Shown: one piece after another, positions 2-58,828 of the stretch
Layout: each line of letters begins with the position of its first letter
Position numbering within the stretch: position 1 is the stretch's first letter
Position numbers and translations under genes: made by a program
The notes under the pieces: generated by a model
Seen by the model: only the letters and a program-made list of their open reading frames with translations
Databases searched by the model: none
Told to the model about the DNA's origin: nothing
From: Proteromonas lacertae
Taxonomy: Eukaryota
NCBI GenBank assembly: GCA_002245135.1
Contig: NGBS01001161.1
Span: 186,001-250,000 of the forward strand
DNA length: 64,000 nucleotides
Direction: 5' to 3'

Positions 2-554
2 ATGAGTAATCCAGATGATAAACCATCCATATTTTCTATGCCTAAACCATTGAGATTGACAGAATCTGAACCAATTTTGAAGAAATTAGAGAGAAGAGAG
101 TTGAAGTTAATACAGGAAGATCATTATCCTCTTAAAGATTTAGATAATACACAGAATGAGACAGTTAGACTTCTACTAGAAGAAAATGCTGAATCAAATA
201 TCCCTTTTTGTTATTTTTAATGATTTATATTTTTTCTTAATAACATTCTACTAGCTAGATATAAAGAAAGGTACAATAAACCATATATTCCAACATTAGC
301 ATTGTCATCTAGATCATTAAATATGAAATTAGCGCAAGAGAAAAAGAAAGAATTTGATGTATATTTTAATTGTATATTTTTACATAGAAAAGTGTTACAA
401 TGAAGAGGTCAAAAGTATTACTATCATTTTATTATTATTTTTTTAGAGTAACTACATGGAGCCTATTGTTGGTAATAAGAAAAAGACGATAGAAGAGATA
501 GTTGAAGAGAGAAATCTTCAAAAAATGGAGCTAAGTACGCAACAGATGTGTTAA
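2..554 (+). CDS. Hypothetical protein, possibly 5'-partial; 3 introns, the first U12-type
   Basis: Frame is continuous after removing 198-251 (AT-AC) and two GTAT...TAG introns (~359-387, ~415-447); ends ...STQQMC-TAA at 552-554. No family recognised. Confidence 0.65.
198..251 (+). other. U12-type (minor) intron, AT-AC, 54 nt
   Basis: 5' ATATCCCTTTT; branch TTTTCTTAAT; 3' ...TTCTAC. Removal gives ENAES-I-ARYKERY and eliminates the stop at 218-220. Confidence 0.8.
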
Positions 555-3497: not shown

Positions 3498-4379
3498 TTA
3501 AGATAATAAATCATTGTAGTTCATTATTCGCAATGCACCATCTTTCGTTCCATATATCAATCCATAACCTATTAAAGGATTAAATGTAGCCATATTCACA
3601 CCATCAGTTCCACTATTAATACAACTTTCAATTTTATTACTCTTTAAGTTCAAAAATCGAACTACTTGTGAGGATGGTTTTAAACTTTTTACTTGGAATG
3701 ATAATAAGGCAACTGACCTACTTGGTGACATTTTAACACATGTGATTTCACTTACATCTGATGGTAGAGAGAGTTAAAATAAAATAAAACATAGAAATTC
3801 TTATTAAAAAAGATATGTTTCAATTCATATTGATATATAATTTTTCCAAACCATCTGTTACTCAAATCAATTAAACAAACAGCAGCTTTATCTTTTTCGT
3901 TTCTATTTTCATGCATAAACGAAATATTTTGAGGAACATAATTTGTATTACTTCTAAAATAATATCCTTCATAACTATTTCTTGAATATGCTGTAGTATT
4001 ATAATTATTAGGATAAACATATGATTTAACTCCTGATGGCTGTGACATGTATCCACTACTGTTAATATTATTACTAGCAGCAGTAGAAGGATTTATTGCA
4101 GCTGTATTATTCAATGTAAAGCCATAAGCACTAATATTTCTACTGTTAAATCCACTATTTGTAATGCTGGATGGAGATGGAGGTCTATGCATCTTATTCT
4201 TCAATTTACTATTATTATCATTATTATATATATATATATATATAAATACACTGTAGCTAATAATAATTTACCACCTTCATCAAAATCAACACCTCCATTG
4301 TTGTACAATACAATTAAAAATGGTAATTTATTTGAAGTTATTTTTTCGATTTTATCAGTAGCTTGCTATATAACAAATA

Positions 4380-5301: not shown

Positions 5302-8300
5302 ATGTCAAATGTATTCGCTCATTTATATATTCTAGTCATCTCTGATTGAAAGTATTGTATTATCAAGGGATATTCCAGTATAAACTTGAATTTTAAATCA
5401 CAATAGACCGAATTTAAACTAGCGAAAGCAATACATGATGATTTGGAAGCAAAAGATAATAGTAATTATTCCCAACAACTTCTAGAAGCAGTAGGACCAG
5501 ATATTTTCGACCAGTTTGTTAAGTATATATTTTATTGGACTATAATTATTTTAGATATTTATTTCAAAGACGTTATGGATGGTCTGAGTATTACGAGGGA
5601 AGTGAAGGAGATCCGTCCAATCCACGAATACCAAAATCACATATTTCTGACACATTGACTAAAGCGAATAAATCAGAATTTAACGACATTTTAGATTATT
5701 TAATATCGTATATTTCAATTCTTTTTATACCGTAAAATTTATTAGATTAATTGGACAATTACCACTTACACCAATAGTCATTAGCGCAATAGAATATACA
5801 GTTTTAAATTGTACGAACTGTCCTGTAGCACGCCAACAAGCTTATTTAACTATATACAATTGGGCAATAAAATCATTCGATGTTGATTTTACTGATAGTG
5901 GTTATGTATTTCCTTATGAAGAATTTAAATGTATTATACTATTATCAATAAGTGATGTATGGTCTCCAACTCGTAAAAACTGTATAAGAAAACTACACGA
6001 ATTAATTGACAATTTTGATGAAAATAAACTGAGAAATCTTTATATCAGTTTCATTGATCTTTATAATCAAAATAACAATGGCAATAACCAACAACCATTA
6101 CCTCTGCAGCAGCAACAACAACAACAACAACAATCTATATCATCAATAATAACTCCCAAATTAATTCGTTCTAATTCAACGTCATCTAACAACAATAACA
6201 ATGATTGGAGAATAAGAGAAGGTTGTATAATGGGGATGGGAATAATCATTAAATCATACAGAATATTGAAAATATCAACAAAAGATAATACATCTGAATA
6301 TAAAATATGTCTAGGAACTGATGTTTATAATGTTGTTCCAACCTATATTGCTGATAATGAAGATATTCTATTAACAGCTATACAAGATCAACAACAATCA
6401 GTTCGTGAATATGGAGTTAAGACTATAACATTATATCTGAATAGAACTTCTATAATATCATCTGATAATATTAGTATATGCCATTTAATGTTATTAAATA
6501 TTACAAATAATCAATTGTTACCCATTATTTATAAACAAAGGAAGAGTGTTAATTATATTGAAGAACCTTATAAAACAGAAGGATTAATACAATTATCTAT
6601 TGTATTGATTAAATATTTGAATCTTGAGTTTATTAATAAAAATTTTGAAGTTTTATGGAATGTATTTTGTATATTTTTATTTGATAATGCAAGTACAGTT
6701 AGACAAGCCGTTTCAGAATGTATAGTTATTATTGTTTTATATATATATATATTATATAGTGTTTGTTCAGTTAATGACTAAAGATATGGATGCTAATTTG
6801 TTTTTACATTTTTTCGATTGTCTTGTAAGATTTTGGGATATCAATAAAGTAATAGTTTTGAATAGTTTAAATTCACCAACTTCACCAAAAGATATAATGA
6901 AAGAAGAAGAAGAAGAAGATGATGATGATGATGAGAAAGTAGTTAATGAAATCAATTTGAATGAAAATCAAATTTGGCAAAAGAAAGAAGGGATTTTATT
7001 ATGTTATGAATTAATATTCAAATACTTAATAAAGTCTCATAGTAAAATATATTATAAAGAAATAAAGAAATTACAACAACAACAACAACATAAAGAAAAA
7101 GAAAAAGATAATAGTGGAATAAATACTTCAATATCTTTTTTTAAAAGAGAATATATATATATATCAATATTATTTCTCTTAATTCATATTTTAAATAGGT
7201 AATATATCAGGTATAGAAAGTTGTCCAGGAAGTAGTAAAATAAAGCGAAAAGTATTAGCTTCAACAACATCACCGATATCAACAACAACCAGTGTAACAT
7301 CACCTGAAAATAATGTGAATAGTGTAACAAACACACCAGAAACAGCAAATAGAGTATTATTTACATCTCCAAGTATTGAACGAATTGTACATGAAAGAAA
7401 GAATAGTTTATTTAGTGAAGAAATGAGATCTCCTTTAAATCCAACCAATAGTTCAAGTAATAGTAACTTTAATAAATCATTATTTATGCTGATATATTCA
7501 AAATATGATGATTATGTATTATTTACTGATAATCTTAGTATATATATATATATATATTATTCTATAGGAACTATTTATCATCAAGTTGAAGATTGTATTT
7601 CCTCAAACAGTAGGTTTGAGTTAAAAAGAATGGGTGAGCAAGATTTACCATTATTAATAACAGCATTATATCATATCTGTCCAAAAATAATATTTGAATA
7701 TTTTAACAATATTATATCAACTCCAATACCTCCAACATCTGTTAAAAGTCAAACACCATTAGTTACAAATAATAAATATATATGTTTATTGAAATCGATA
7801 GATACAATATTAGAATATAACGCTAGTAATAAAAATATAGATTATGAAACTCATTATCAATCAGATTATTATTATAATATTCATATAAAAAGTAAAAATA
7901 TGAATAGAAGACATGAGAATGGTAATAATAATAATAATAATGATGATGAAGAAGAAAGTGATGAAGATGATGGTGATGATGATGATATTTATATATCACC
8001 TGTATATATTTATATATTTATGTATTTAATAGTATAATTTATTCAAGAAATATATTCCTCAGTTTCTTATTAATTTTGATAATTTGCTATGTAATGCTCC
8101 TTCTGATACTATTAGTTTAATGACATCTCACATTATTATATTATTATATTATTATTATTACAATAATCAACAACAACAACAACAACAATCTGTAGAAATG
8201 GATGATGATGATAATGTAGTTGTGATAATCGATGAGAAATTAAAAGAAAAACAAATCAATTTCATTGTAAAGAAGTTAGTAAAAATTGAAACTATAAGAA

Positions 8301-15511: not shown

Positions 15512-17535
15512 CTAGTACATTTCATCATCATCATCATCTTCTTCTTCTTCTTCTTCATCTTCATTTTCACTTTCTTCTTCACTACTTTCACTTGAACTTG
15601 TTTTTTTCAATGGGAATTTTCTAGGTGGAGCAACTCTTAATACAAACCTTTCATCAATACTATTTCTTCTTGGAGTAGAAACAGGAGTTTTACTTCGTAT
15701 ATTATTTATAACAGCAGACTTTGTATTCTTCTTTATTTCCTTCATCGATAATATCAAATTATTCAATATAATAGAAGATGAAGTATCCATTAATGATGAT
15801 TTAGATTTTAAACTCATTTCAGCATTGGATAGATAATTTGGATTATTGATTATGCTATTAATTTGTTGGTTTTGTATATTAAATTTCTATTCAATATATA
15901 AATATATAAGAAAATATACTTTTTCTGAATAATGTAAAGCATCATCAATCATTGCTAAACAAGTAACATAACCAAATGGAACTTTATCTTCATTCATAAA
16001 TGAATATTTATTAATATAATCAATAGAATATTTTGCATTATACAACTTCAAGTATATTAAAATCAATTGACAATAAGATGAATTCTCAGCTTCAAATGTA
16101 TAAATATCTTTATCTTCAACTATTCTCATATTCTTATTAAAATCATTATTTCTTTTATTACTATATGGAGATTGATCAATAAATATATTACTTTCACTTT
16201 GGCTTCTTAATCTGGTTGTTGCTGCAGATGTTATTGTTGAATGAGAACGATTTGAATGAGGTGAAATACGTTTTCTAATTGGAGAATTTTGATCAGATAA
16301 TGAAGTAGAAGTATTAATATTAGTTGGTGTTGATGGTGATGTTAATAATGTAGTTGAACTACTAATATGGTTTGTTACATGAATTGAAAACTTTATTTCA
16401 TTATCTTGTTCTTTATAAAATGATAAATTTGAATGATAATGTAATGATAAAACAACTTTTGATTTACTTAATACTTTTATTTTATGTTTATTAATTTGTA
16501 TTTCAACTTCACTTTTTTCATCAACACCTTTGATTCCTTTTATATGTTTTATTTTATAGTTAAAATCACATTTTTTGCTCATTTCTGTTTTAACATATTC
16601 CTCTAAATGTTTTGTTGTTATTGTTGAACATATTTCACAACATTTTTTGTCTTTATATCTAACTTTCATTTCGATTTTACATCCAGCATCATTTATAGAT
16701 AAATAATACAAAGGACCACTTCCTACTAATTCAATGATATTATCACCGTAAAAAAAAGAAATAGACGTTAAAGAAGTTTATTAATTATTTATTGTTAAAA
16801 AGATATAAATTTATGTCTATACCATTGAATATCACATCTTTCACATACATCACTGATTTTACCATTAATCTTTAGACTTCCATGACAACGTAACTATTAT
16901 AATTATATTATTATTATTGTAGTTATACTACATCACCAACTCTTGGTTGGCCTGCAATATAACAATCATTCAATTCAACTCTTTCAGTATCTAATATTTT
17001 ACTATTCACATTATTTAAGGTTGAATTCAGCGATATTAACTGCTCTTTCAAATCGTTTAAATAATGACTTGTAATGTCTATGAAGTTCTATTAACTATAT
17101 ACTGATATTACACATACAATGAGATAATCTTCTTTCTTTTCACTTGCTTCTTCTTCTTCTGAAAATGCCATTAGTGGTGTAGTAGGATCAGAAATAGTGA
17201 ATTCTTTGGAAGTGGGCTATTACAATATTTTAAATTATAATACTCTATTAATTACATGAATAGATATTTCACGTCCATATGGTTGTAATTTATGTTTTAA
17301 ATTCTCTATATCTTCAATGCTTTCAATTTGACATCTATGTAGTAAAAAAGCTTTATATACTGGATCATTAACTTATTATCATAACGTACATCTGCTTCTC
17401 CCCATTTAACTCCATTAAACTTATTTTTAACTATCTTTGAGAGTAAATTTAACGGATTTGCATTTGGTAAAGGAACAACTGAACATTGACAAGCATCTAA
17501 TAATTATATTGCATTATAGATTGTGTACATGACAT
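15512..17535 (-). CDS. Hypothetical protein with AIR9/A9-like Ig-type repeat and acidic C-terminus, ~7 introns
   Basis: IAGQPRVGDVL...QWYR...G...GSGPLYYLSINDAGCKI resembles the A9 repeat consensus; exons join in frame. Confidence 0.6.
16748..16806 (-). other. U12-type (minor) intron, AT-AC, 59 nt
   Basis: Minus strand: 5' ATATCTTTTT; branch TTCTTTAAC; 3' ...TTTTAC. Joins QWYRHKF-GDNIIELVG in phase 0 and removes stops. Confidence 0.8.
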
Positions 17536-18781: not shown

Positions 18782-19123
18782 ATCACTATAAAAAGTAGGA
18801 GAACAGAATAATGAAACGAATAGTGAAGGTGAAAATATTGAATTTGAAGAAGAGAAAGAAAAAAGGATAATTAGGATTAGAAAGGATAAAAGAAGAAGAA
18901 AATTGAAATAACAAATAATAAAAGTGATAAAGATAATAGAATGTAGTGAAATAATCATAAGAAATAAATATTTTGCTAAATACTGTAATATAGTATTTTA
19001 GTTGTAATAAAATCTAAATTATTTGAACTTATCTCTGCATTATATAAAATAGACATAGAGTATTTCTCAAAATCTTCTATGCTTCTTTTCTTTAATCAAG
19101 CTTCTCAAGCTAATCGTTTCAAA

Positions 19124-32163: not shown

Positions 32164-34458
32164 CTAATATTTTTTCCATTCAGATGGCTTTGTATATACT
32201 CTTAGGCATGAATTTGATGAAAATAAATATCTCAACAATCCGTCTGTCACTTTGTAACAACCACTGTAATTCAAATGACATAAAGTAGTTCCACCCAGCT
32301 ATATGCCATTAAAATGATATATAAATATATACATGCATCAAACCTTTGTCAGTGATATTATAACATCCATATATACATATATCTAAAATTGATTTACAAT
32401 AAGCATCTTCAATTCTAGATAAAGATTTATCAGAGATGTTTGAGCAATTTGAAAGTGACAGATATTTTAGCTTAAATTTTCCATTGCACATACAATCTAT
32501 ACCTTTATCTGTTATTGATGTTAAATTAATGTTCAGTGAATCAAGTACAGACATGGTTTCTGATATTGATTTTAACACTTCATCATCACATCTATTTTAA
32601 ACATATAATAAATGAAGATATAAAAAAGAAAAATATATACAATTCTAAACCTGATAAGTCCAATTCCACAACATTTTTTGAATATAATATACATTTACAT
32701 ACACTATTACTTGATAAAAATCTATTTCCTCTTAGCTAAATACATACATAAATAGAAAAATGAAATATACAATTAATGAAGTAAGATATTCACCATTTAT
32801 TCTAGCCCATTTCTCCATCAACTCTTAAAATATCCAATTAAAAACACTATTCGTTATTTGTAGTAGGAATTAATCAAAAAAGATATATTTAACAAATCAA
32901 TACCACCATATAAACTGAACAAACATAAATCCTCACTTTTTGGATAAGGTGTTTCATCCATTATTGATTCTAATAGTTTAAGATATGTATCTACATATTG
33001 AGAAGAAATGTCAGCAATCATTTCTTCACTATTTTCATTATCAAAATAATTATCAACATCTTTATACGGCTGAGACCATCTACAGATATAAGGCTCCCAT
33101 CTAATACGATTTATTATTCTAATTATACTTTTGATATTTCAGAATATCTTCTGATTCTTCTAAATACAGTTCTTTACGTTTAATAAGAGATAGAATACCA
33201 ATTCTAATTATTGGTTCTCTTATTGTATCATAACATTTAACTGTTATTTATATAAATAATAAAATAATAATAAAATACGAGGTAATAGACATGATAAACA
33301 TTCATAAAACAGTTTCAGATCATTTATCACATCCAACAACTGTAATTGATATTGCAAATCATAATTCACAAATTTAGAAGAAGTTAGAAGCGGAACGAAC
33401 AATGAGAGTAAATGTGTAACAATCATATCAAGTTGTAAATAGTCTGCACACTAATCAAACAAATAATAATAATAATGATTTATACAAAAATCAAATCCCA
33501 TAAAAATGGTGAATCAATCTCTTCATCTGTCAAATACTTAGATTGAGATAAATTTAATTTCTGCTGAACATCTTTCATATAATTTACTAATATATTCATA
33601 ACTTTAGCTGGTATTGTTGGGAAATATATTGTATTTGGATATAATGGTTCTTCAATTGGCTTTGATTCTTCAATTGGTGATTCAACAGGTGATGATGATG
33701 ATGATGATTGAGGTAATTCATTTGGAATATCTTCATTTTCAACTGACGGGGGTGGAGGAATACTTTCATTCTTTTCACCATCACTATTATTACTATCTTC
33801 AACATCTTCCTTTTCATTATTACTGTCATTATTTACATCTTTATGTGTATCTTTATCATTTGTAATTGTTTCATCTTCTGTTTTCTTATTTAATACAGGT
33901 TCTGGTAGAATGATATTAGCTTCACTTGTATCAATTGGAGGTAATGGTAATACTTCTACTTTTTCATTTGATTTATCTTTTGGAGTGGTTTGTATTTTGT
34001 TCTTCTGTTTAATTGTTTTACCACTATAATTTTCTGATTTTGCTTTTGCTATTGGTTTCGTTGCTATTATTGTTTTTGAGATAACTCTTTTTGAACTTGT
34101 ATTTACTAACTTCTTATCAGATACTTTGGGTTTCTATATCATTACAACATTAACAAGTATTAATACCGTTTTTAGTTGACCTTCATTATATATTGATGAA
34201 TTAGGAAGTATTTTTGATTTAGCTAGTTTTGTTTTTGACTATACTATTAAATTAAGTAATTTATACAACTGAGTATGTTGTTTTACTTTTAGTTGTTTTA
34301 TTTGATTTTTTAATAGCTATTTATAAGAATATTCAAACAATATTATACGATTATATCTCAATTGTTTGTGTAATGGAGTTGTAGGTAGTATATCTACTGT
34401 AGATTGTGACAGCTTTCTAATGAAATACAAATTACTTAAATAAATACTCTAAACTCAT
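32164..34458 (-). CDS. Protein with C-terminal cysteine-containing (FBXL/AMN1-type) LRRs, ~10 introns including one U12-type
   Basis: LSLSNCSNISDKSL, IYGCYNITDKGL, LNYSGCYKVTDGLL; N-terminal low-complexity K/P/E region; start uncertain. Confidence 0.7.
32825..32886 (-). other. U12-type (minor) intron, AT-AA (or AT-AG 3 nt further), 62 nt
   Basis: Minus strand: 5' ATATCTTTTTT; branch GTTTTTAAT; 3' ...TTTTAA. Joins GGIDLLN-ELMEKWAR. Confidence 0.72.
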
Positions 34459-38476: not shown

Positions 38477-40091
38477 TTAAATCGGACTAACAGGAACAAC
38501 TGTACCTTCTTCTTTTATACCATTTGGAGATTCTTTATCCGTCTTATCATCATTGATCACTTTATCACTACTATTTTTCTCATCTTTCTTAGTATCTGAA
38601 CCTCTATTTGGTCTTTGAGCATTACTCAATTCATCTTCCCATACTTGAGCAACTCTTTTACCTCTCTCTAATTTAACAAATAACAAGATAAACAATCCAA
38701 TTGGAAAAGTTCCACAGAAGATACAAGCAGCAGTTCTTCCATCTGTAGCATCAGATATTGGTCCATAAACAGTAGAAATAATAGAAGCTAAATTAACAAA
38801 CATTTCCCATAAACTAAATATTTCACCAGATAGATCTTTGGGTGATAACAATGTCAACATTGATCTAGAACATGATTGGGATGGTCCCATAGCTACTCCA
38901 ACAATAGGGCAAATACAAATAAAGAAAGTTTTTACATTCCCAATTTAATGCTTCACATAATTCTATAGCAGAAACAGCTAATATTAAACCAACTGTCCAT
39001 ATCACTAAAGTTATAATAATAACAATCTTTGGACCTAAATAATTCTCAATATAACCAAACAATACACAACCTACAGCTGCAGTTATTTGAATAATGACAA
39101 ACATTGTCGCAATTTGTCCTGATGATAAGTCAATTGTATCACTTGCATAAATGGACATAAAACTGACAATGCCTTGAACGCCAATCATATAGATTAAGAA
39201 AGCTAAAAAGAATAATCTCAAATCTTGTTTCCTCATTACAACTTTCAATGTATTCCATAACTGCTTAAATGTATCTTTTAAATCTTCCCATACCTTTGTA
39301 ATTAATTTTGTATTTTTCAATTCAACGGAATCATAGATGGTTATTGTGTTTTTGGATGGAACTTTCCATAAACCATATATAACTGGAATACCAGATATTA
39401 AACAGAATAAACCACAGAGTAACATTGATAGAGATACACTATCAGCATAACCAGCATCACCTTCACTTTTCATTACCCCAAATGTTAATATTCCCAAGCC
39501 GATTGTTCCACCAACATATCCAATTCCCCAACCTATACCACTTACAAAGCCTGAATATTTTCTATCTGTTACACAATCTGGTAGGAACATAGCACATACT
39601 CCTTCATTGGTATTATAAGCTATACGACCTAAAATTAACAACACTAAGGCCAACACTGTATGATTATGTTCTGAATACGGTCGTACGAAGAATAACAAAG
39701 CTGAAAATATTGAATACCCCACTATATTTGCTCCTACCCATGCTAATTTATGACCTTTTAAATCAATTATTGAACCAATAACAGGTGTAACTAGTATTGA
39801 AAATATTGTAGGTACAATATTTGCAACAGACCATAGAGAGGCAGCTACACCTGATTTTGCAACATAATCGACAAAATATGGTGCATAAATAGCAGATACA
39901 ATAACTGTGATATAAATTGAATTGGAAAAATCATTAAAAGACCATCCCAAAGTTTCTCGCCACTTCACTTTGTGATACCATTTATCTTTAGATGTATTCT
40001 CTGGGGATTCTATTTCTATTGACATAGGTGCGACTTTTGTCACGCTTTTATTTTCTTTCAGTTCTACAGTGCTAGGTTGGCTTTCGGACAT
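38477..40091 (-). CDS. MFS transporter, UMF1/Atg22-like, intronless; +1 frameshift at the T-run 38929-38933
   Basis: W.FNDFSNSIY.T...Y..YF, P.IGSIID.KG.K, VSGIGWGIGYVGG, GP.QS.SRS; ~12 TM segments once one base is removed. Confidence 0.85.
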
Positions 40092-41431: not shown

Positions 41432-44400
41432 ATGGATGGATGTATTTCACCATATTCAACATCAACGGTCGCTAGAGGCGATTCGAGAGAGAATGAAAGA
41501 GATATATTAGCAAAATATAAAGACGGATCTGGAATTATAACTCAACGACATACAATAAATGAAGTAAGCGATTTAAAACAAAGAGCAATAATGTATAAAC
41601 AAATACTGGAAGTTAAAAGCGATTATCAGAAAAAATGTCTGGCATTTGAAAATCAGAAAGAAAAAGCTGATTTAGAATATGGCAGACAGAAAGATATGGA
41701 AAATGAACTTGCTCAAAATGAAGAAACACTACAACAAATAGAATCTGGTGAAATTGTTGTTTTACCTAGAGAACAATGGAAAATAGAAAAGAAAATAGAA
41801 TATTTAAGGAAACAAATACCAGTGCAACATGCACTAGCAGAAAAAGAGAAAGAATTACGAGTTGTAGCATCTCAAGCTAGAGATATGTCTGAATTAGCAT
41901 ATCACAAACTGAAAGATGATGAAATAGCAATAGAACAATCAATAGCCCAAGAGAACGCAGAAAAAGAAATAATAGCAGCAGCAAGAATGAAGAAAAAAGA
42001 AATAATAGAAAATACAAGAGAAAGAAAATATGAGCAGTATATAGATAATGAAAGGCAAGAAGAAGAATTCCATGAAACTCAAGCCCAAAAACAAAAACGA
42101 ATAGCTTTAGAAGGAATGAAATTAGCTAAAGAAAGACTTAGAGATTATAAACAGGAACAATTACCATACATAAATACATTAAAACAAGCTGAAGATGAAT
42201 ATACTGAATTAAGAACATTACAAAAACAGTCATTAGATGCGAATGTAGAAAGAATTACTAATAGAATAAAAGGTAAAAACGAAAAGAACAGAATTGCTGA
42301 AGAAGAAAGGAAGAAGAAAGAAAAAGAAGAATTTAATGATTTACTGTCGAATGGTAAGAATCCATATTATGTGTTTAGAAAAGAAAAATTAGATAAAGAA
42401 AAACAGCAAAAAATAGAAAATTTAGAAAAGAGGATAGAAGATTCAAAAGTAAAAATAAAAGAAAGAGTAGTATATGAAGATTCTCTAGACATGAAAGCAA
42501 AGAAAATAGAAATAAAGAATAAAGAATATGAAGATAGATTTAGAAGAGAATTAGGTAGAAAAGCTCAAGAAGAACATCGAGATGAGATTATGAAGAGTAT
42601 TACAATAAATCAAAGTATATTAGCCACTGAAGATGGTTCACCATTTTACCCATCTGAAAAGACGCAGTTTAAACCAGGTGGTTTTGGTACAGGTAGGACT
42701 GCTTTATTAAGACCAGATATTGTTGATAAAATAGCATCTAAACCTGTAAATAAGAATGTACAACCTGCTGATATATTTGTTAATACTGTATTTATTATTA
42801 TTATTATTATTATTATAGAATTTAAGAAGTAAAGATTTTTCTAAACAGCCATCAAGAGCAACATCTAGTGAAAGTGCATATCGAGATATAAAACTAGGAG
42901 AAATGCCAGGAACAACAGAATTAGAAACTATCAAATCACCAGAGAAAAAAGGATTTAAACTACGAGAATTAAGTAAATATGAACAGAATATGATGAAAAA
43001 AGCATTAGATCGACATAAAGCTGGTTTTACTAAACCACAAGTTGTCTGTGGAAGAGAATTTAAAGGTCAAGCTTTTATTCCCAAACCTGCAACTGTTGAA
43101 TTTAAAGATTTTGAAGTTGGCGTTGATATGGTAACTACTTTTATATTAACAAATGTGTCTTATAGTCAAACATATTTCAAAATGTTACCTATTGTTGATG
43201 AATATATAAATTATTTTGAAATTGAATATAATAAACCAGGAAGAATGTCTGCTGGTACTTCTTGTTTAATAAAAATTAGATTTATGCCTAAAGTAAATGA
43301 AGATATTTATACTGAAATACCATTTCTAGCTGATACTGGTCCATTTGCTGTTCCTTTAATATGTTTAACTAAAAAAGCGACAATGTCTATTAGTTCTGAT
43401 CATATTGATTTCAAACCAGTAGTATTAGGTGAATATGGTTTATATAATTTAAAAATAACAAATGATGGTGCTTTAGATACACATTATACATTAGTTACAC
43501 AAAATCCTGAAGAAATTGACAATCAAATATTTGAATATCCAATGGAAGGTGATGTCTTGAAACATTCAACAAAAACAATTACATTTAAATTCACACCAAA
43601 TCAACCAGAATCATATGAAAGAGATATGAAATTGGAATTTAATAATACTGAACCATTTGACTTAACAATGACTGCTGAATGTGTAAAAGTGCCTATTTAT
43701 TTAGAAAATCCAGTTTTAGACTTCTTATGTATTCCAGCTGATAAAACATACAGAATTGGATTATTTATAAGGAATAGAGGTAATATAACAATGAAAGTGA
43801 ATATTAAAATACCAAAAGAATTGAAAGATTATGTTTCAGTCAATCCTGATACAGTGTATGTACAAGGCAAAGATATAAAAGCAGATAAAGAAGGTAGATC
43901 TGAAGTAAGAATAAAATTTGAACCAACATTGGATTTAATATATAAATTCCCATATTATGTTCAAGACGATGTATTAGAATATCCAATACAATTAGATATA
44001 CCAGACCAAACTGAACCAGTAATATTCAAAATAAAAGCACAAATAACCAACAGTGATATAGAAATTAATCCTAATCCTTTATCATTTGGTAGAGTGTATA
44101 CTAACCAATCAAGTGTAATAAAAATAACAATGAAGAATCATTCAGCATTAGCACAAAGATTTGGATTTGTACATTTACCACAGGAAGTTATGATTAGACC
44201 AAATTATGGTTTTGGTACAATATTACCATTTGAAAGTCTAGAAAGAGAGATTGTTTTTTCACCTTCATCTGATATACTATATGAATATAAATTAGAATGT
44301 TGTACTGATTTTAATAGAAGGTTTTATATTCCAATGACAGCTCAAGGTGTTATATCACCATTTTCATTGTCGCATACAATTGTTCATTTCCCACCAACTG

Positions 44401-46424
44401 CCAAAGGTGATGTTAGTCAGACTACTATTACAATAAAGAATAAATCAAAGAAAGAAATGGATTTTGAATTTAATGTTCCAGTTCCTGAAATTTCACAAAT
44501 TATATTTGTTCCAGCTATAGGTACAATTCAACCTGGTAATTCACAGAATATATTAATAAACTTCAAACCAACAGAAGATGGTTTACATCCACCACCACCT
44601 CCTCCACCTGAACCAGAACCAGTAGAACCAGAAGAAGAAGAAGAGGATAGCAAAAAAGGCAAAAAGGGTAAAAAACCAGCTGCTAAAAAGCCACCAGCAA
44701 AGAAACCATCACCCAGATCATCTAAAAAGAAGAATGGTAAGAAAGGATCACCAGAACCAATAGAAGAACCACCAGAGCCAGTAGAACCAGAAAAACCAGT
44801 AGAACCAGAAACACCAAAACCACCAGAAAGACCTAAAATAGATGATAAAGTAGGATATATTCAATATTCAGAAGATATTGATGAAAATGAACCATGGAGT
44901 AGACATGCTTATTGGAGAGTCCCATTATTTATGAAAGAACATGATAGTGATAATATAAAAGAATATGAACCATTAGGTGTGAAAGTATATACAACAACAG
45001 TACAAAAGACATTAACATGCGATTTAGAAGTAATTGATTTTGGTAAGAAAGCTGCTGGTTGTGAAAGTACAAAGATAATTACCTTGGTTAATACAGATGA
45101 AGAACATGATTTACAATTAGAAATAGTTCCATTAAATACAATGGGTAGTTTTAGTGTATTAAATCCAGTAGAATCAATACCAGCAGATGGTAAAATATAT
45201 ATAACAGTATGTTTTAAACCATTACAACATTTAATTTATAAAGAAACTTTAACAATAAAATCTCTACGAGGAAATGTAAATATTAAACTAACAGGTGAAG
45301 GAATAAGTCCTTCTTTAGAAATCATACCAAACGATCCAATTATTAATATGGGAGTAACACAACATGGTAATACATCTACTAAGACAATTACATTAAAGAA
45401 TGTATCACTTTTCCCATTAACATTTACAGTAAAACCATTAACTTCACAAGATACAAATTATACAACATTACCTGTATATGGTTGTATTCCAATGGAAGGT
45501 ATTATTTTACCAGAACAAAGTGATACAATTACATTTTTCTTTACTGCTGATCATTCAAAGAATATTCCTTATAAAATGAAATATTTAATTGATGTTCCAA
45601 ATCAAACAGAACCTCATGTTGTTGAATTGATAGGTAGATGTTATGACACACCATTATATATTTATTCACCTGATTCCGAAGCTATTATTCCACATGGTAA
45701 AGAAGGTATTGAATATTTATTAGATATTCCATCATGGATTCCGATGGTAAAAGATGAAGAGAATAGTAATCCACTGTTACCAAATACAACAGAAGAAGAA
45801 GAAGAACCACCACAAGTTAATTTAAATTCGAGAGATACATCAATATATTTACATGCTGTTAGAATTGTATTTCCTAAAGATAAACCTGATGCAAAAATAC
45901 CAATTTATTTAGGTGGAGTTCAACCACATATTCCAATATCAAAAGATGCTGGTTTAGCAGCTGATGGAGTTGTTGATCCAAAGAGTGCAGCTGCTGCAGC
46001 TGCAGGAGGTAAAGGTGCAAAAGGAGCAAAAGCTAAACCACCACCTAAAGCAAAACCAGCTGCATCAAAAGCAGCAAAAGGTAAATCAAAGAAAGGAGGA
46101 GCAACTACAGCAGCAAGTGAAGAACCTATTGAATTTAATATTATTCCTGTTTGCACAACAGGTGGTGTTGGTACTTATGATATAAATGTTCCTGCACAAT
46201 GTCCATTTAACTTAACTAATCCTAGAGGTAATTTAACAAGTACACAGGAAGTAGTAATAGAAGTAACACAAAATCATGCAATCTTCAAAAATGATGATAG
46301 TGAAAAAGATATTGGCTTGTCGATTGGTAAGTGGATTACTACAGAATTAGTTTGTGAAATGAAATCTGGTAATGATAGTTTTTCAGTTCCTATAATATTA
46401 AAAGGATTTTTTAATACCATTTAA
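41432..46424 (+). CDS. CFAP74: Cilia- and flagella-associated protein 74, 1 intron
   Basis: N-terminal coiled coil with G.NPY.VF; QVVCGREFKGQAF..KP..VEFKDFEVG...LTNVSY...PGRMSAG; ASH/Ig repeats, GFGTILPFE. Confidence 0.85.
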
Positions 46425-48505: not shown

Positions 48506-50388
48506 ATGAATAATGCCGATAAAAAAGATAATCGCAATTCAAATGCTAACAAAGGTACAGAAGAAGTATTGGCAAAGATTATTGATGGTTTAGCTACTTC
48601 GATTACCTCTCTTCCCAATGATCTTGATTCAATTTCTAGATATTATTACTTCTTGCTGAATAGAACCGAAGGAACAAAATTTACCCCGGAAGAGATCAAG
48701 AAAGTGATATCAAGTAAAAAGAGAGAAGATTTGATGAAAGGAGCAATAGGTGAAGAAAAACCACATGATGATGTGATTTCATCTATAGTGAACAGTTTAA
48801 CATTGAATGACTCATTTATGAGCTTCAATGAAAGTATAGAGATTAATGACTTTCCAGAAAAGAGAATCTTTATTAGAGAATGTTACAAAGAGAAATACAC
48901 TGAGATAATGAATGATATAAAGACTTCAAAGAATGAAAATCCTCATTTTGTAGTGATTGGTCAAACAGGTAATGGTAATACTTCATTTGCTTATTTTATG
49001 TTAATGAATATAAAGAATGAGAAAGAAGATGTATTAAAAGGAAGAGAGATTTATTTTATAAAATCTGAAGATTCAATGGTTTATAAATATGTCAAGAAAG
49101 GAGAATGTTATTTATTAGAACATTTACATGATTGTGATATTAGAAAAGTGAAAAAATCAATTATTATTTGTGATAGTTATGGTAATGCTTCTAGTGATAA
49201 TATCATAATCTCCATTAGTTCTCCAAAGAAAGAGTTTTACAGATATTATATGAATAGTAATTCAAAAACAATATATTTTGATATATTTAGTCCAAATGAA
49301 GTTAGAATATGGTTTAAAATTTGTTTAAACTATGACAATGGGGTTGTTGATGAAAATGTGATGATTGATTATGGTTATAATCCTAGACACATTCACAGTC
49401 ATTATATTAATAGAGATATATTCAAAAGAGATTATTGGGATGAATATAGAAAGTCATTAAAGGGATTAATTGGTATTAAAAAGTTTAAAGAATTTATTAA
49501 TGAATATCTGCTCAGTGAAAGATATGAAGAGAATGAATTTATGAATTTAGTATTTCATTACAATTTAAAAGATGGAAAACCTCAAAAGTATTTGAAATTC
49601 AATTCAAAAAGAATTTCTTATGTGTTTATGAATAATATATCAAGAGAGTTTTTTGAAGAAAAAGCTGTTGATGAAAATTACTATATATATCGAATATATA
49701 AAGAAATGGATGATGAAGAAATAAAATCATTTATGTATAAAAGATTAGTAACATATGTAGTTGCATCCCATCCAGAAATTGTTAAAGATATAATATTATA
49801 CTATGAATCTAATTGTCATGATATGAAACCTGGCTTTCGTCATTATTATACTACATATGTAAAAGAATTTCAAGCAAAATCTTATTCTTACTATTATTTA
49901 AATGAACAGTATGATCGATATGATTTTGTAGTAAATAATTGTATGTTTAAAGTGTTTTATGATGATTCTTCACTTCAAATCAATGATGATGAACCAAAAT
50001 AAGATTTTTAATGTATTGTTATTAATTATATTCTTAATAGAGTAATTTCTATGGAAAAGACGAAAAGATATTAGAATCAAAAGAAGTTATAATCCAAAGA
50101 GAAGGATATGTTCGAAATGGTTTAGTATTAAATGATGAATATTTAGATAAATATTTTACTTCAAGAAAAGTAAGGAAATTAATGATCAGTGAAAACAATG
50201 AATCATTACCACCTGTTACTCATATAAATACTCATTCTAGATTTGCTCCAGGAAGTGAATTTGAAGATAATGAAGATGAAAGAGAAGATGAAGAAGATGA
50301 AGAAGGAGAAGAAAAAGATGATGAAGAAAAAGATGATGAAGAAAAAGATGATGAAGAAAAAGGCGACGACGACGACGACGACGACGAC

Positions 50389-50421
<33 letters not shown>

Positions 50422-51546
50422 AAAGAAGAAAAAGGAGATAAAAACAAAAAGAAGATCAGTAAAGAAAAACCAATCATTAGTTTAAAACCTAAAGAATTTA
50501 ACATAAAAATAGACAAAAAACTAATAGTTGATATTCCATCAAAAGAAGAAAACATACCAAATGATATTGATTTACAGTTAAATGAGATTGCTATCGATGA
50601 AAAAAATGATATATTATATATTAATAAACATGAATTGGTTAATAGAGATTGCTACAAAACTATATTGAACTTAATAAATGATAATAACAAAGGAAAGAGA
50701 AATTTTTTGATATTTGGGGTAGAAGGAATTGGTAAAACAGTTTTAGGTTATTATTTATGTCATTATTTTAGTCATTACTTATTTTCTGACAATGAAAATT
50801 ACAATGTGTTATTTATATCCAACAAAAACAAGTTTTATTATGCTCCAAAAGAAACTGGTGTATTTATGAGAATTGATAAATATGAAAATCCAAAAAATGG
50901 AAAAGTAGTGATAATTGCTGATGATATAGTGATAACTAGTAATGATTATATTGATGCTGATACTATGATTTTGTTGAGCAGTCCTTACTTGAAAAAGTAT
51001 AAAGATTTCCAATCCAAAAGAACTCCATTGTCAATGTATATTCCACCATTTACCGAAAAAGAAGCAAAAAAGTATTATAAAGGTGATTATGATATTGATG
51101 CTGACCAATATGGATATATTCCTGGTTTATTCATGCATGATTATGATGAAGATGAAGATTATTTTGAAGGATTAATTAATGAATATAAAAAACAATTAAG
51201 AGGACATAATTTCTTTGAGTATATCAAAGATGTTGATGAAAATCCAGAGAATGGAAAAATTAATATGAACAATATTTACTGTTATAAGATTAAAAAAGGT
51301 GATTTAACCAAAATAACTAGATATGAAGAGATATCAGAAGGTATTGGCAAAACGGTGTTTAATCATGTAATGGGTGGTGGTTTTGGACATCCAAATTTTA
51401 CTACAACTAATAAGACTAGAAGAAGAAGAAGAATAGAATTTGAAATTGATGGAGATCCTTATCTTAAAGATAATAAAAGAAAGGCAGAAGAAGAAGAAGA
51501 TGATGATGATAATGAATCTTCATCTAAAAGAAGAAGAGTAGAATAA
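48506..51546 (+). CDS. Crinkler/RHS-type protein with two P-loop NTPase modules; needs a +1 shift at 49996-50002 and intron 50013-50040 to be one gene
   Basis: FIRECY...VVIGQTGNGNTS...SSP...Y (module 1) and NRDCY...IFGVEGIGKT...LSSP...YKDF...MYIPPF (module 2); acidic linker; C-terminal KRRR. Confidence 0.6.
50311..50419 (+). repeat. Coding tandem repeat (GAAAAAGATGATGAA)x3 followed by (GAC)n(GAT)n poly-Asp
   Basis: Directly visible; encodes EKDDE x3 and a long Asp run. Confidence 0.85.
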
Positions 51547-51693: not shown

Positions 51694-54600
51694 ATGGCTG
51701 AGAATCGTCAAAATAGAGAAAAATCGGTTTCACAAAGGCGTGAAGAGATGGAAGCGTTTGATGAAAGTATAAATATTAATAATTATAACTAGAATTTGGG
51801 TATGTGAAGTTTCGTGGTGAACCAACAATTGCATGGCTTTTGAACATGGTACCAACTTCAATTTTAGATGAATATAATGAAGAACAGGCTTGTCTTGAAA
51901 TGTACTTCTTAGAAAAGGATACAAATAATTCTTTTAAAGGCACATATCTATATCGGCCTTATTTTTACATATATGTTCATGAAAAGTACATAATGGAAAC
52001 CACAAGATATCTTGAAAAGACTTATTCAGGTCATATTGAAATTACAGTAGCGCAGAAGGTGGATTTAGACCAGCCAAATCATTTGAGTGGTAAATTAGCA
52101 AAATACCTTCGTTTATCTTTTACATGTGTGAGATATCTTCTAGAAGCAAGAAAAGAAATTATGAGTTATGTAAAACACAATCAATCCTTACATGGAAAGC
52201 ATTTAATATATACAATTCCAGAATCATCAATAACAACATTTACTGAAGCAATCTTTGATATAAGAGAATTTGATGTTCCATATTATGTAAGAGTATGCAT
52301 TGACAATGATATAAGAACAGGAGCTTGGTACAAAGTAATACAAACAAAATCAGATAATGATGGATTTATTAATGTAGAATGGCAAAAAGACATGGTAGAA
52401 AAAGCAAAACCTAAAATATTAGCATATGATATAGAATGTACAAAAGAACCATTAAAATTTCCCAATTCAGACCATGATTCTATTTATATGATTTCTTATA
52501 TGATTGATGGTATGGGATACTTAATTGTTGACAGGAAAACTGTATCTCAAGACATTGAAGATTTTGAATATACACCAAAGAATGAGTTTCCTGGGAAGTT
52601 TATGGTTTTTAATGAAAAGGATGAGGAAGATTTGATAAAGAGATTTTTCACTCATATTCAAGAAGAAAAGCCAAATATTGTAGTAACTTTTAATGGTGAT
52701 AAATTCGATATGATATTTCTTGAAGAACGAGCAAAAAAGTATAATTTAAATATGACCAATGAAATTGGATTCTATTTAGAAGGTGATCATTATAGAGGTA
52801 AAAATGCAGTTCATATGGATGCATTCTGTTGGGTAGAAAGAGATAGTTATTTACCGCAAGGAGCACGTGGCTTGAAAGCTGTAACACGTCATAAATTAGG
52901 ATATGATCCTGTAGAAATAAGTCCAGAAAATATGTTAGTATATGCTATAACTAATCCACAATATATGGCTACATATTCAGTATCAGATGCTGTAGCAACT
53001 TATTATTTATATATGCAATATGTCCATTTATTTGTATTTAGTTTATGCACAATCATTCCAATGAATGCTGAAGATGTATTAAGAAAAGGAAGTGGTACAT
53101 TATGTGAAATGTTATTACAGGTTGAAGCTTATCGAGGTAATATTATATGTCCAAATAAACAAATATCTGATCCTTATACATTTCATAAAGGACATTGGAT
53201 TGAAACAGACACTTACATTGGTGGACATGTTGAATGTTTAGAATCTGGTGTATTTAGATCAGATTTACCAGTGAAATTTCGATTAGATCCTACAGCATTT
53301 CAATACTTGATTGATACAATTGACAGTTCTTTGACATTTCATATTGAAGTGGAAGAAGGATTACAAAGATGTGATGTATTGAATTACGAAGAAATCAAAT
53401 CACAAATTATAGAGAAATTGGAAATGTTGAGAGATTCTCCAATCTGTAATGATAAACCAATTTTATACCATTTAGATGTAGCAGCTATGTATCCTAATAT
53501 AATACTTACAAATCGTTTACAACCATCTGCTATTGTTAATCCACAAATATGTTCTTCCTGTTTGTTTAACAGACCTGAGAATGAATGTAAAAGAAAAATG
53601 AAATGGGAATGGAGAGGTGAAATGTATCCTTTGAAATTAGGTGAATTTAAACAAATCAAAAGACAATTGGAAGAAGATTCTTCAACAACTAATAAGAAAT
53701 TTCTAGAAATGACTGAGACTGAACAAGTTGCTGCTTTGAAGAAAAGAACAAAAGAATATTGCAGAAGAGTTTATGGTAAATTAAAAGTAATTGAAACCGA
53801 AGTAAGAGATGCAACAATTTGTCAAAGAGAAAATTCATTCTATGTAAATACTGTTAGATCATTTCGTGATAGAAGATATGAGTATATATTTTATTTTAAT
53901 TATTTATAGTTATAAGAAATTAACAAAGAAATGGAATGGAGTATTAAAAGATATAATGAATAAAGGTGGAGATATATCTTTTTTTTTAATTATTATGTTA
54001 ATATAATAATTAGTTTTCTTTAATTGATAGTTAAGAAGAAGAAATAGAAAATGCTAAAACAAAAGTTGTATTATTTGACTCATTACAATTAGCTCACAAG
54101 TGTATTTTAAATTCATTCTATGGTTATGTAATGAGAAAAGGAAGTAGATGGATGTCTATGGAAATGGCTGGAGTTGTGACACATACTGGCTCAAATCTGA
54201 TTACTGAAGCAAGAGAATTAGTTGAACGAATTGGAAGACCATTAGAATTAGATACAGATGGTATTTGGTGTATTTTACCACAATCATTTCCTGATGTTTA
54301 TACATTCAAATTGAAAGGTGATAAGAAAGTGAAAATCAATTATCCATCATGTATGCTAAATGCTGAAACTCATACGAAATATACAAACCATCAGTATCAA
54401 CAATTGGTTAATGAAAAAGAGAGAAAATATGCAATGAGAAGTGAGTGTTCAATATTCTTTGAATTAGATGGACCATATAGAGCAATGGTATTACCAGCAT
54501 CATTAGAAGAAGGGAAATTATTGAAGAAGAGATATGCAGTTTTCAATTTTGATGGATCTCTACAAGAATTGAAGGGATTTGAATTAAAAAGAAGAGGAGA

Positions 54601-57600
54601 ATTACAAATCATTAAGATATTTCAATCTCAAGTATTTGAAAGATTCTTGTTAGGTGATACACTTCAAGAATGTTATAATAAAGTTGGTGAAACTGCTAAT
54701 TATTGGTTAGATGTATTATACACACATGGCAAAGATATGGAAGACGAAGAATTGATTGATTTAATTAGTGAAAATAGAAGTATGTCTAGAACATTAGGAA
54801 GATTATGGCGAACAAAAGTCAACATCAATTACAACAGCTACAAGATTATCTGAAATATTAGGAAAAGATATGATCAAAGATAAAGGTTTAAATTGTAAAT
54901 TTGTTGTTTCTAAAAAGCCAACTGAAGCTAATATATCAGAAAGAGCCATTCCAACTGTCATATTTTCAATGGATGAGGAAATTAAAGAAAAAACATTAAA
55001 AAGATGGACAAAAGATAATGGATTAAAGAGTTTTGATATTAGAGATATAATTGATTGGGATTATTATATTGAAAGATTTGGAAGTTGTGTTCAAAAGATT
55101 GTTACAATTCCTGCAGCAATTCAAAGAGCTCAAAATCCAGTTCCAAGAATTATACATCCTCCTTGGTTAAAGAAATTGATTAATGATTCATTAGATACTA
55201 GAAAGCAGATTAAAATTGATAGTATGTTTAATCAAGAGAAGACTGTAGATATTGAAGATTTGTTTAAACAAGATAGAATAAACAATAATATAAACAGTCA
55301 ACCAGAACAATTACATGTGGAGAATGTAATGGAAATTGAAGAAGAAGATGAAGATGAAGTAGTAGTAGATAATGAAAAAGAGAATAACAATGATAATAAT
55401 AGTAACAAGTCAATAATGATGAATGAAGATTTAAAACAATGGTATAATCTTCGAAAAGAAGAATGGAAAAGAATGAGAAGTGTGAGGAAAAGAAAGAGAC
55501 AAGAAATATTCAATAATATATCCAGTAATACAAGTATAAACTCCATAATCAAACCAACTGATAATCTACAATCATATTTCAATCAACAACAAAGAATTAC
55601 TGCATTAGGTTATTGGCAAATAATAGAAATATGTGATTTATCATCAAATGGAAATTTGAAGTTATGGGCTTTTACTTCAAGAAATACATTACAAACAATA
55701 ACACTTCATATTGAAAAGACATTTTATATCAATACATTAGATGATAATTTACCAATAGGAAAGAAAGTGAAGAAAATATTACCTCATAATCATAAGTTAT
55801 ATAATTTGTATGAAATTAAGATGTCTGATTATGATTATCATCATCCCAGTAAAGAATTGTTGAATATATTACAATCACATAATATAAGAGGAATATATGA
55901 AGTGAATGTTCCATATTTGTATAAGACATTAATACAGATTGGATGTATTACAAGAGTGAATAAAGAAAGAAGAATGAAAGGTAATACTAGTAATAGTACA
56001 TTGTTTAATTTGGAGGATTTAGAGTATTTAACAACAAGTGATTATGGATATTTAATGAATGAAACTTCTAGTTTTATAAGATTATATTTATATTGTGTTG
56101 AGAATAGTAATGGTAATGGTATATGGATGTTGTTTACTTTGCTTCCAGACAATGAGAAAGATATAAATGTTACAGTATGGGAAGTAAGCGAGTATATTAT
56201 TTATTATTATTATTATTATTATTTATAGTCAAAATAATGATATGTATAATGTAAGATATAAGACATTATTTAATGAAATAAGACTTCATAATAATATCTC
56301 TTCGTATTCCTCACTCCGTATTAAAGTAAATAAAGTCTCATCAAAAGTATATATATATTATTTATGTTTAATAATAATAGAATGAATTTTACAAGTTGTT
56401 TAATAAGTATATAATGGATTATCAATCTAGTCAAAAAGGTCCAACAATAATCATAACTCAAACACCATATATATCAGAAATATTAAGAATTGATATTCCT
56501 TCACTAAGAGATTTGCCATTAGTACCTTTATTATATCCAACTGAAGATGGAAAAACATATAAATCATTGACATGGAAAAATGAATTTGCAGAATTGTCAT
56601 TTAATAGATTCTTCAAAATGAATGATTTATGGGAAGAAAAATTAGGCATTTCTCGATATACACATATTCCAGTTGGTAATTTAACAACAGATATAGTGAT
56701 AGAAGCTAGTGATATATTTTATGGAAGATTATTGACATTTAACAGAAATTTATTATGGGCAAATACAAGTGCATTTCCAGATTTAGGTGGTTATTTAATG
56801 CAGAATTATATTGATAGTGTATTTTCTGGAAATGGTAATAATGTTACACCATTTGAGCAATCAAATCAAGGCGTTTATCGTTCAGTGTGTATTGAATTAA
56901 AAATAAGAAATCTTATTATCAACACAATTAGGATGAGCGATCATTTATCTGATATGGAAGATATTGAAACTGATGATATTTCACAACAATTTGGGTTTTG
57001 TGATACTGCCTATAATATATTAAGAATGTTAATAAGTAGATGGATCTCAACAGCTGAATCAACAGATTTACATTTAGTTGATTATTTCTTAAGTAATTGT
57101 TATAGATGGTTATGTTCTAAATCATCGTTATTATATGATCCTTCTATTCATTCGTTAATTTGCACTTTGATAAAGAAAATATTATTGTTGATCTTAAGTG
57201 AATTTAGACATTTAGGTGCTAATATAATATTTGCTTCTTTTGATAAAATTATATTTTGTAGTAATAAGTTTACTTTAGAAAGTGCAAAGAGTTATTTGCA
57301 GTATATCTTAGATACAATATCCAATCATGAGTTATTTAAGTATTTAGTATTTGAACCACAAGTGTATTGGGATTCTTTGATTTGGATGGATAGTTATAAT
57401 TATGGAGGAATTGTATTAGAGAATTGTGTAGAAGAAGAGGAGGAAGAAGAAGAACAAAGAGAAATGGAAGAAAATAATAATGAAGGACAAGTTAATGAAA
57501 TTATTGAGGAGGAAAATAAATGTGAAAATGATAAGAAAGATAAAGATAATGATAATGATGATTATAAAAATCAAGAAGTAATGGAAGTTGAAGATGGTGA

Positions 57601-58828
57601 TGATGAAAATGAAAATGAAAAAGAAAATGATGATCAAAAAGAAACTGAAGATGATGAAATAATGAAAATTATTGAAAAACACAATAGAAGGAAGGCAAGA
57701 AACGAAAGAATACAACAATATCATGATTCAGATGGTGATGAAGATGAAGTAGACAATGACAATGGAATGGAAGAAGAAGAGGATGATTATGAAGATGAAA
57801 CGTTAAATGGATTTATTGTAGATGATGAAGAAATAGAAACTTCAACAGGGAAAATATATAGAACAGAAAAAGGAGAAGCTAATCATACATTGAAAGAGAA
57901 ACAAACAGAACAACAAACCAATGGTAAAGACTTTTCATTGCATTGGCTTACAGCTACATTTTTACCAGCGTTTTTAGATGCTCCATTTCAAGTTATCATA
58001 GCTGATTTTCTATTAAAACCATTAAATTACAGAAACAACTTGATTAAAGATCATCCTGAATCTACTTTTGATGAAATTAATGAAAAAATGACAGAATATA
58101 CGAAGATTTATATTAAAGAAGAAGTATTCCCAACATTGTCAAAATTGGTTAAAAATATACACGATAAAGTAATTGAAGATGATCCAGAAACTAAAACAGA
58201 TAGAACATTTCCTAAATTTGCTGGAAGTCATTTAAATCTAACATCACCAACATTAGAATATATAAAAGTAATCTGTAAGATATTAGGTCTTGAAGAATGT
58301 ATAGATTTAGAAGTGTTTAGATTAAAAACTAATTTATTGAGTCTAATAAAGAAAAGAGAATCATCTGAAGAATGTCAATATAAAAATCCATGTCTTTCAT
58401 TAATAGTACCAGATGTAATATGCAGTTATTGTAATGAATGTCAGAATATTGATTTTTGTAGAGATTCATCGTTTTTATTTCCTGTAAATGATGATAATAA
58501 TATGTGGGTATGTGAACATTGTGGTCATCCATATAATAAATTGGCAATAGAATATAAATTAGTGGAATTGTTGGATGAATTAATATCAAAATATCATTAT
58601 CAAGATTTACGTTGTGTTAAATGTAAAAATGCAAAAGAAGATAATATATCTTCTGCTTGTAGTTGTGGTGGTGAATATATGAACAGTGAAATAAGTTCTT
58701 TGCAATATATTAAACTGTATATTTGATTTATTTTTATATAATACTCTAGATTAACTCCATTTGAGAATATAGCAAATTATCATCAACTTAGTTGGCTTAA
58801 AGAGGTAATAAATACATACAAACATTAA
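51694..58828 (+). CDS. POLE: DNA polymerase epsilon catalytic subunit; 6 introns (one U12-type); +1 insertion at 54797-54798
   Basis: Exonuclease YDIECTK, FNGDKFD, YSVSDA; polymerase [45 protein letters not shown]-terminal Cys motifs and QDLRC..C. Confidence 0.95.
53974..54034 (+). other. U12-type (minor) intron, AT-AA, 61 nt, in POLE
   Basis: 5' ATATCTTTTTTTTT; branch TTTTCTTTAAT; 3' TGATAGTTAA. Gives [28 protein letters not shown] acceptors ending at 54030, 54035 and 54038 are out of frame with this donor. Confidence 0.82.

Follow-up and report, generated by a model that had tools for sequence, protein, structure and literature searches.

A predicted U12-type intron with AT-AA ends in a gene for DNA polymerase epsilon, and similar candidate introns in the same window

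Minor introns with unusual ends in described systems

Because their last base is variable, minor introns are grouped as AT-AN and GT-AN (PMC8280824). Mutational tests covering every one of the sixteen NU-AN end pairs are reported second-hand (PMC2831892). Non-canonical ends occur in about 3.8% (animals) and 4% (plants) of conserved minor introns, AT-AA being the commonest such terminus in both groups (PMC10639083). Individual AT-AA cases number three in human, four in mouse and one in Arabidopsis, and the MSH3 intron ends AT-AA in human and AT-AC in mouse (PMC1557818). The three human introns (in RASGRP4, FLJ21106 and MSH3) are like the one described below, in the gene for the catalytic subunit of DNA polymerase epsilon (POLE), in their AT-AA ends, their extended U12 donor and a branch point near the 3' end (PMC1557818). 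A first-pass annotation of this DNA had singled out the POLE intron. Its identification of the gene stands, and AT-AA is indeed the best-supported pair of ends, but the predicted intron is no anomaly, being a further example of an AT-AA minor subtype already described. The same annotation held that splicing here must be efficient, which does not follow: human A-type minor introns, AT-AA included, depend on CENATAC and show a relatively high basal retention (PMC8280824), so that adequate splicing of the POLE intron would suffice.

Other systems bear comparison with the window as a whole (that is, the entire 64-kb stretch of DNA that was analysed). Blastocystis ST1 has 346 minor introns among ~35,000 (~1%) and all four minor snRNAs (PMC5608401); its minor introns are AT-AC in 196 of 253 cases, have a mean length of ~42 nt and lie in phase 0 in 49% (PMC10639083). 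The likeness to the window lies in short, numerous, mostly AT-type minor introns (candidates, in our case) among very short major introns. The differences are that the share of such introns is 4-5% in the window against ~1% in ST1, that an AT-AA class goes unmentioned for ST1 in the available portions of both papers (PMC5608401; PMC10639083), and that the window encodes the flagellar protein CFAP74, whereas Blastocystis isolates have lost their cilia and flagella genes (PMC12129017). Elsewhere, B. hominis is credited with 0.29% minor and 2.6% minor-like introns (PMC11347168), and vertebrates with ~0.3% minor introns (PMC10639083).

In Physarum polycephalum, where minor introns have undergone a large expansion, a [G/A]TATC[C/T]TTT donor variant has been described as U12-like (bioRxiv 10.1101/2020.10.12.336362). 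The window is like Physarum in this donor variant, in its many non-canonical U12-type ends and in intron positions mostly unshared with distant species. It is unlike Physarum in that the perfect-donor set of the latter is mostly GT-type (3021 GT versus 627 AT) and its branch motif is transformed, whereas the window candidates are all AT-type and have the classic branch motif in a T-rich version. Minor-intron gain is held to be extremely rare; it is clear in Physarum and has been suggested for Blastocystis (PMC10639083). In a search of mainly open-access literature, we found no description of stramenopile minor introns rich in AT-AA ends.

The POLE gene and its interruption

The window has a GC content of 26.9%; its genes are densely packed and their introns very short. 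The gene at 51694..58726 (plus strand; ~2,280 codons, with five predicted introns and one apparent frameshift) is POLE. Its open reading frames match the Pfam exonuclease, POL2 thumb, DUF1744 and zinc-finger families, the exon 3' of the intron matches solved POLE chains (best E 4e-109, phmmer), and the ~2,280-residue model, which has the DIE, DVAAMYP and ELDTDG motifs, aligns with a mammalian POLE (P0346) at 42% identity across 1,920 positions.

Genes were modelled with a two-strand parser whose codon usage was trained on 23 long ORFs. It could call frameshifts, GT-AG introns and introns that open with ATATC[CT] and close at any 3' end; it superseded a first codon scan that was too noisy for ranking. 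In POLE, the parser places an ordinary 28-nt intron (GTAT...TAG) at 53882..53909 (plus strand) and follows it with a 64-nt exon at 53910..53973 (plus strand). Beyond this exon the POLE frame is not readable through 53974-54034. As the first-pass annotation had reported, these bases begin with AT (more fully, ATATCTTT), end with AA and contain in-frame stops, and their excision restores the frame, joining a Gly-Gly-Asp exon end to an open frame whose first three codons all specify Glu (ORF 54035-54853, which begins directly after a TAA at 54032-34). The interval has a GC content of 0.10 and a purine content of 0.39, against 0.23 and 0.73 in the preceding exon, and it departs from the pattern of the major introns here (GTAT donor, TAG acceptor, ~34 nt). 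Judging by the reading frame, an intron is required in POLE at 53974-54034. We think, with a probability of roughly 0.7, that it is a 61-nt, phase 0, U12-type intron with AT-AA ends at exactly 53974..54034 (plus strand), a prediction drawn from the sequence, the codon scan and the gene parser, the last two of which both picked the AA at 54034 when the 3' end was left free.

The putative 5' splice site, ATATCTTT at 53974..53981 (plus strand), is the extended U12 donor RTATCCTT with one C-to-T change, at +6. It is common to five of the six U12-like candidates in the window (the sixth has ATATCCCT), and TATC[CT] at +2 is found in none of the window's predicted GT introns. The branch-point-like motif TTTTCTTTAAT, at 54014..54024 (plus strand), is a T-rich variant of the conserved branch-point sequence (TCCTTAAC-like). 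Its candidate branch adenosines, 54022 and 54023, lie 12 or 11 nt from the AA end with no pyrimidine tract between; from the second of them it is 11 nt to 54034, 7 to the AG ending at 54030, 12 to 54035 and 14 to 54037. The TAA at 54032..54034 (plus strand) is a stop in the frame of the downstream exon, with the predicted acceptor formed by its final two bases; splicing to any earlier acceptor would retain this stop, and all such acceptors are therefore excluded. This includes the AG at 54029-30, just after the branch motif, and the first-pass annotation was right that it is skipped.

If this reading is correct, the interval would be removed by the U12-dependent spliceosome via its AT-AA ends. 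By analogy with what is established for minor spliceosomes, U11 and U6atac would read the ATATCTTT donor, with what we take to be a G-U wobble at +6, and U12 would pair with TTTTCTTTAAT, bulging the adenosine at 54022 or 54023. Distance from the branch would then largely fix the 3' end: the AG, at 7 nt, would be too near, and the AA, at 11 nt, would be taken; the branch-to-3'-end optimum is given as 11-13 nt (PMC3584512). A further AG lies one base downstream of the AA, at a permitted 12 nt, and would have to be mostly ignored. The expected side products are use of this AG (a frameshift) and of an in-frame AA three bases on (one Glu fewer). With AA, AG and a second AA within four bases, the intron offers a natural test of 3'-end choice; it is also one at which gene finders restricted to GT-AG would truncate or mis-splice POLE. 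Within the 64-kb window itself, Rfam gave no match of any kind at either threshold, genes for U11, U12, U4atac and U6atac included.

Which junction? Homology, motifs and the competing readings

All excisions were enumerated whose donor lies within 53912-54009 and whose end lies no further than 54074. There are 1,259 that leave the frame open, and we listed those in which the terminal pair is one of ten recognised kinds and the spacing between the RDRR and LAHK motifs is 36-50 residues. The serious options are AT-AA to 54034, 54037, 54040 or 54043, AT-AG at 53972-54035, and two GT-AG excisions that start at 53966 and end at 54035 or 54038. The first-pass annotation had thus listed the AT-AA acceptors incompletely, the in-frame AA ends at 54037, 54040 and 54043 having escaped it. 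Its view that the nearby AGs are out of frame is correct, relative to the 53974 donor, for those ending at 54035, 54038 and 54041, but it missed the in-frame GT-AG intron that starts with GTGGAG at 53966. Similarly, its claim that there is no GTAT-type donor is true inside the stretch that it quoted, but there is a GTATTA at 53941, although every AG beyond the stop is out of phase with it.

Among 323 distinct homologue segments, the spacing between RDRR and LAHK is 44 residues in 169, 41 in 57, 45 in 42, 43 in 39 and 42 in 2. The AT-AA excision to 54034 gives 45, against 44 in mammalian POLE (P0346) and as the mode; the fit to animal POLE spacing claimed in the first-pass annotation is thus off by one residue overall, the local Gly-Asp-x-x-Glu register being kept. 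Against a profile of the 314 segments that are 40-46 residues long, AT-AA to 54034 scores 101.1 bits (45 residues), AT-AG at 53972-54035 scores 101.0 (44) and AT-AA to 54037 scores 100.6 (44), while the GT-AG options from 53966 score 97.1 and 96.2, 4-5 bits lower; for the best scores the exon that begins at 53910 must extend to 53971-53973. Alignment with POLE orthologues, which the first-pass annotation had proposed as a check, therefore leaves the three leading junctions, all within 0.5 bit, unseparated. We rejected protein spacing as the deciding test because the homologues themselves vary among 41, 43, 44 and 45 residues. Support for AT-AA at 53974-54034 as the best-supported pair comes instead from the donor motif, from the branch motif and its distance, and from the sister introns described below. 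That the ends are AT-AA at one or other of the tandem acceptors (54034 or 54037) is somewhat more probable than the exact junction.

The position of the intron shows no sign of ancient conservation: an intron at the same codon was seen in none of 80 homologous loci, many of them from intron-poor groups and some possibly transcripts. In this set, 71 loci are contiguous by motif, seven of the nine others were read by eye, and L037 and L038 match L036 without a stop. Two of the loci read by eye have peculiarities of their own, L005 a GT-AG intron ~12 codons downstream and L067 a frameshift. A spliced POLE from the same organism or a close relative was not found in searches of the longer and representative proteins, nor were any of ten window ORFs present in the protein collection by exact look-up; the closest relative protein, P0122, begins downstream of the 53973/54035 junction.

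The competing reading that survives best, though we consider it unlikely, keeps the same U12 donor and branch and moves the main acceptor to the AA at 54037 (AT-AA, 64 nt), or uses the two acceptors in tandem. This excision is in frame and gives a gapless fit with the modal 44-residue spacing. However, the end would lie 14 nt from the second branch adenosine, outside both the 11-13 nt optimum and the 10-13 nt seen in four sister candidates; splicing would have to pass over the AA at 54034 as well as the AG at 54035, and the free parser favoured 54034.

A little less probable again is an assembly error at the AA end. The true intron would then be a canonical AT-AC, with an A standing for a C at 54034, or AT-AG, a G having dropped out where the next exon begins. 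The AC ends of three sister introns would fit with this, and the same gene has, in the thumb domain, an apparent one-base insertion in the GG run at 54797..54798 (plus strand). There P0122, which is 97% identical upstream, is continuous, and its tblastn match switches frame between 54796 and 54798. The extra G, ~760 nt downstream of the intron, is probably an assembly error, to judge from this protein; a dead gene copy, the alternative, fits poorly with the intact motifs. The chance of an error at the acceptor is thereby slightly raised. This is the sole frameshift tested and found by homology. The parser, over ~54,600 predicted coding bases, reported no second one, although an error could have passed there as an odd intron. 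Against an error at 54034 there are, besides, two more AA-ending candidates in the window, so that up to three separate errors, each at a minor acceptor, would be needed. As for the GG run, the parser made of it a 22-nt "intron" (54780-54801), which we rejected, as it masks the frameshift and P0122 retains the residues concerned; a GT-AG gene finder would conceal the frameshift in the same way.

We regard as quite improbable a conventional GT-AG intron of the major class that starts at 53966 and ends at 54035 (70 nt) or 54038, with the U12-like motifs being incidental. Its ends are canonical and in frame, it is the choice of the parser if only GT-AG is permitted, and the version ending at 54038 gives 41 residues, the spacing of 57 of the 323 segments. 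On the other side, a GTGG donor occurs in none of the 109 predicted major introns, the median length of which is 34 nt, the profile scores are lower, the 42 residues obtained with 54035 are found in only 2 of the 323 segments, and the coincidence of a U12 donor with a correctly spaced branch motif is left unexplained. Just as improbable, in our opinion, is an AT-AG intron whose donor lies two bases earlier (53972-54035, 64 nt), which the first-pass annotation was right to raise: it is in frame, with the modal 44 residues and an AG 12 nt from the branch adenosine, but its donor, ATATATCT, sets the TCTTT two places off both the U12 consensus and the five sister donors, and AT-AG combinations are described as disfavoured (PMC3584512), though 11 human cases have been listed (PMC1557818). 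Finally, a GTAT...TAG intron at 53941-54013 was rejected, having a stop left in frame and the lowest profile score (89.8 bits), and making a purine-rich (0.73) stretch intronic.

Candidate sister introns and the setting of the window

With the 3' end free, the parser used as donors 7 of the 196 ATATC[CT] sites on both strands. A YYTTAAY motif lies 4-21 nt from the chosen end in 6 of these 7 picks, against 5 of the 109 predicted GT-AG introns (Fisher p = 1e-6, an optimistic value, the motif and the distance window having been chosen after viewing the candidates). Nine decoy donor motifs of similar composition gave 17 picks, three of them with a branch motif and all three overlapping real candidates; the gain in parse score was 51.7 bits for the real donor motif and 0.1-15.1 bits for the decoys. 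The seventh pick, at 20021 on the plus strand, was dropped (no branch motif and a non-canonical end), and an eighth, at 32789 on the minus strand in the first parse, became a GTAT intron after donor weighting. As to the 109 major introns, 98 start with GTAT; their donor is very narrow, with A at +3 in 104, and their acceptors are mostly TAG. Three other predicted introns, at 18770-18806 (plus), 23841-23883 (plus) and 38896-38935 (minus), have atypical donors and 30% GC, and may be mis-parses or hidden single-base assembly errors.

There remain, besides the POLE intron, five sister U12-like candidates. Three end AT-AC: 198..251 (plus strand; 54 nt, branch adenosine 11 nt from the end), 3764..3816 (minus; 53 nt, 10 nt) and 16748..16806 (minus; 59 nt, 20 nt). 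The other two end AT-AA: 7131..7194 (plus; 64 nt, 12 nt) and 32825..32886 (minus; 62 nt, 13 nt). Counting POLE, four of the six 3' ends come from the free parser. The two others were set by hand at the nearest in-frame option on a donor chosen by the parser, namely the AC end of the candidate at 3764..3816, where the parser end was 6 nt short, and the AA end at 7194, where it was 3 nt long. All five sister junctions rest on the parser and the motifs, without homology support, and some have rivals: a GT-AG parse of 7131..7194 that requires a GTGG donor, an in-frame 104-nt GTAT...AG intron for 16748..16806, and an 80-nt GTAT...AAG intron, likewise in frame, for 32825..32886, which is the least certain of the five.

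The six candidates measure 53-64 nt, longer than the major introns, with branch-to-end distances of 10, 11, 11, 12, 13 and 20 nt, and their ends are divided equally between AC and AA. The three that end in AA (POLE included) are all in phase 0 and all end TTAA. No GT-type minor introns were seen among the window's predicted introns. The minor-like share is 6 of 116 predicted introns, or 5.2% (95% interval 1.9-10.9%), and ~4.3% (1.4-9.8%) if the POLE intron, the reason for which the window was flagged, is left out. We think that the three AC-ending sisters point to a working minor spliceosome, and that the two further AA-ending ones argue against a one-off base error in POLE.

From this one window, the ~4-5% of U12-like introns, all AT-type, suggests that the organism has unusually many minor introns. 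One may speculate further, and we do so with considerable doubt, that a flagellated and probably stramenopile lineage gained minor introns to ~4-5%, all of them AT-type and with AA about as common as AC, the acceptor being set almost wholly by branch distance, and that the POLE intron is one recent gain. If true, the share would be several times that of Blastocystis ST1 and more than ten times the vertebrate level, and a second stramenopile lineage with dense, AT-only minor introns and frequent AA ends would provide a test of minor-intron gain in the group and of how a minor spliceosome chooses its 3' end. Six AT-type minor-like introns, half of them ending in AA, are in any case a lead worth following beyond the single intron in POLE.

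The tentative stramenopile assignment draws on a G-beta protein encoded in the window, the best named matches of which are nearly all stramenopiles, at ~60% identity. In a tree of 20 rows (two of the named ones non-stramenopile) it is not placed inside the sampled oomycetes, diatoms, raphidophytes or a Tribonema pair. The organism is probably flagellated, since the gene at 41432-46424 (plus strand) encodes, according to Pfam, the ciliary central-pair protein CFAP74. Between this gene and POLE, at 48506-51546 (plus strand), there are two long adjacent ORFs without a Pfam match, each with a P-loop-like glycine motif; the parser bridges the two with an intron of 89 nt whose GTGT donor is atypical, and they may be two genes. 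Finally, P0122 and P0383 are proteins from assembled runs that are ~97% identical to proteins of the window (P0503-P0506 belong to the cluster of P0383), which indicates that close relatives of this organism have already been sequenced.
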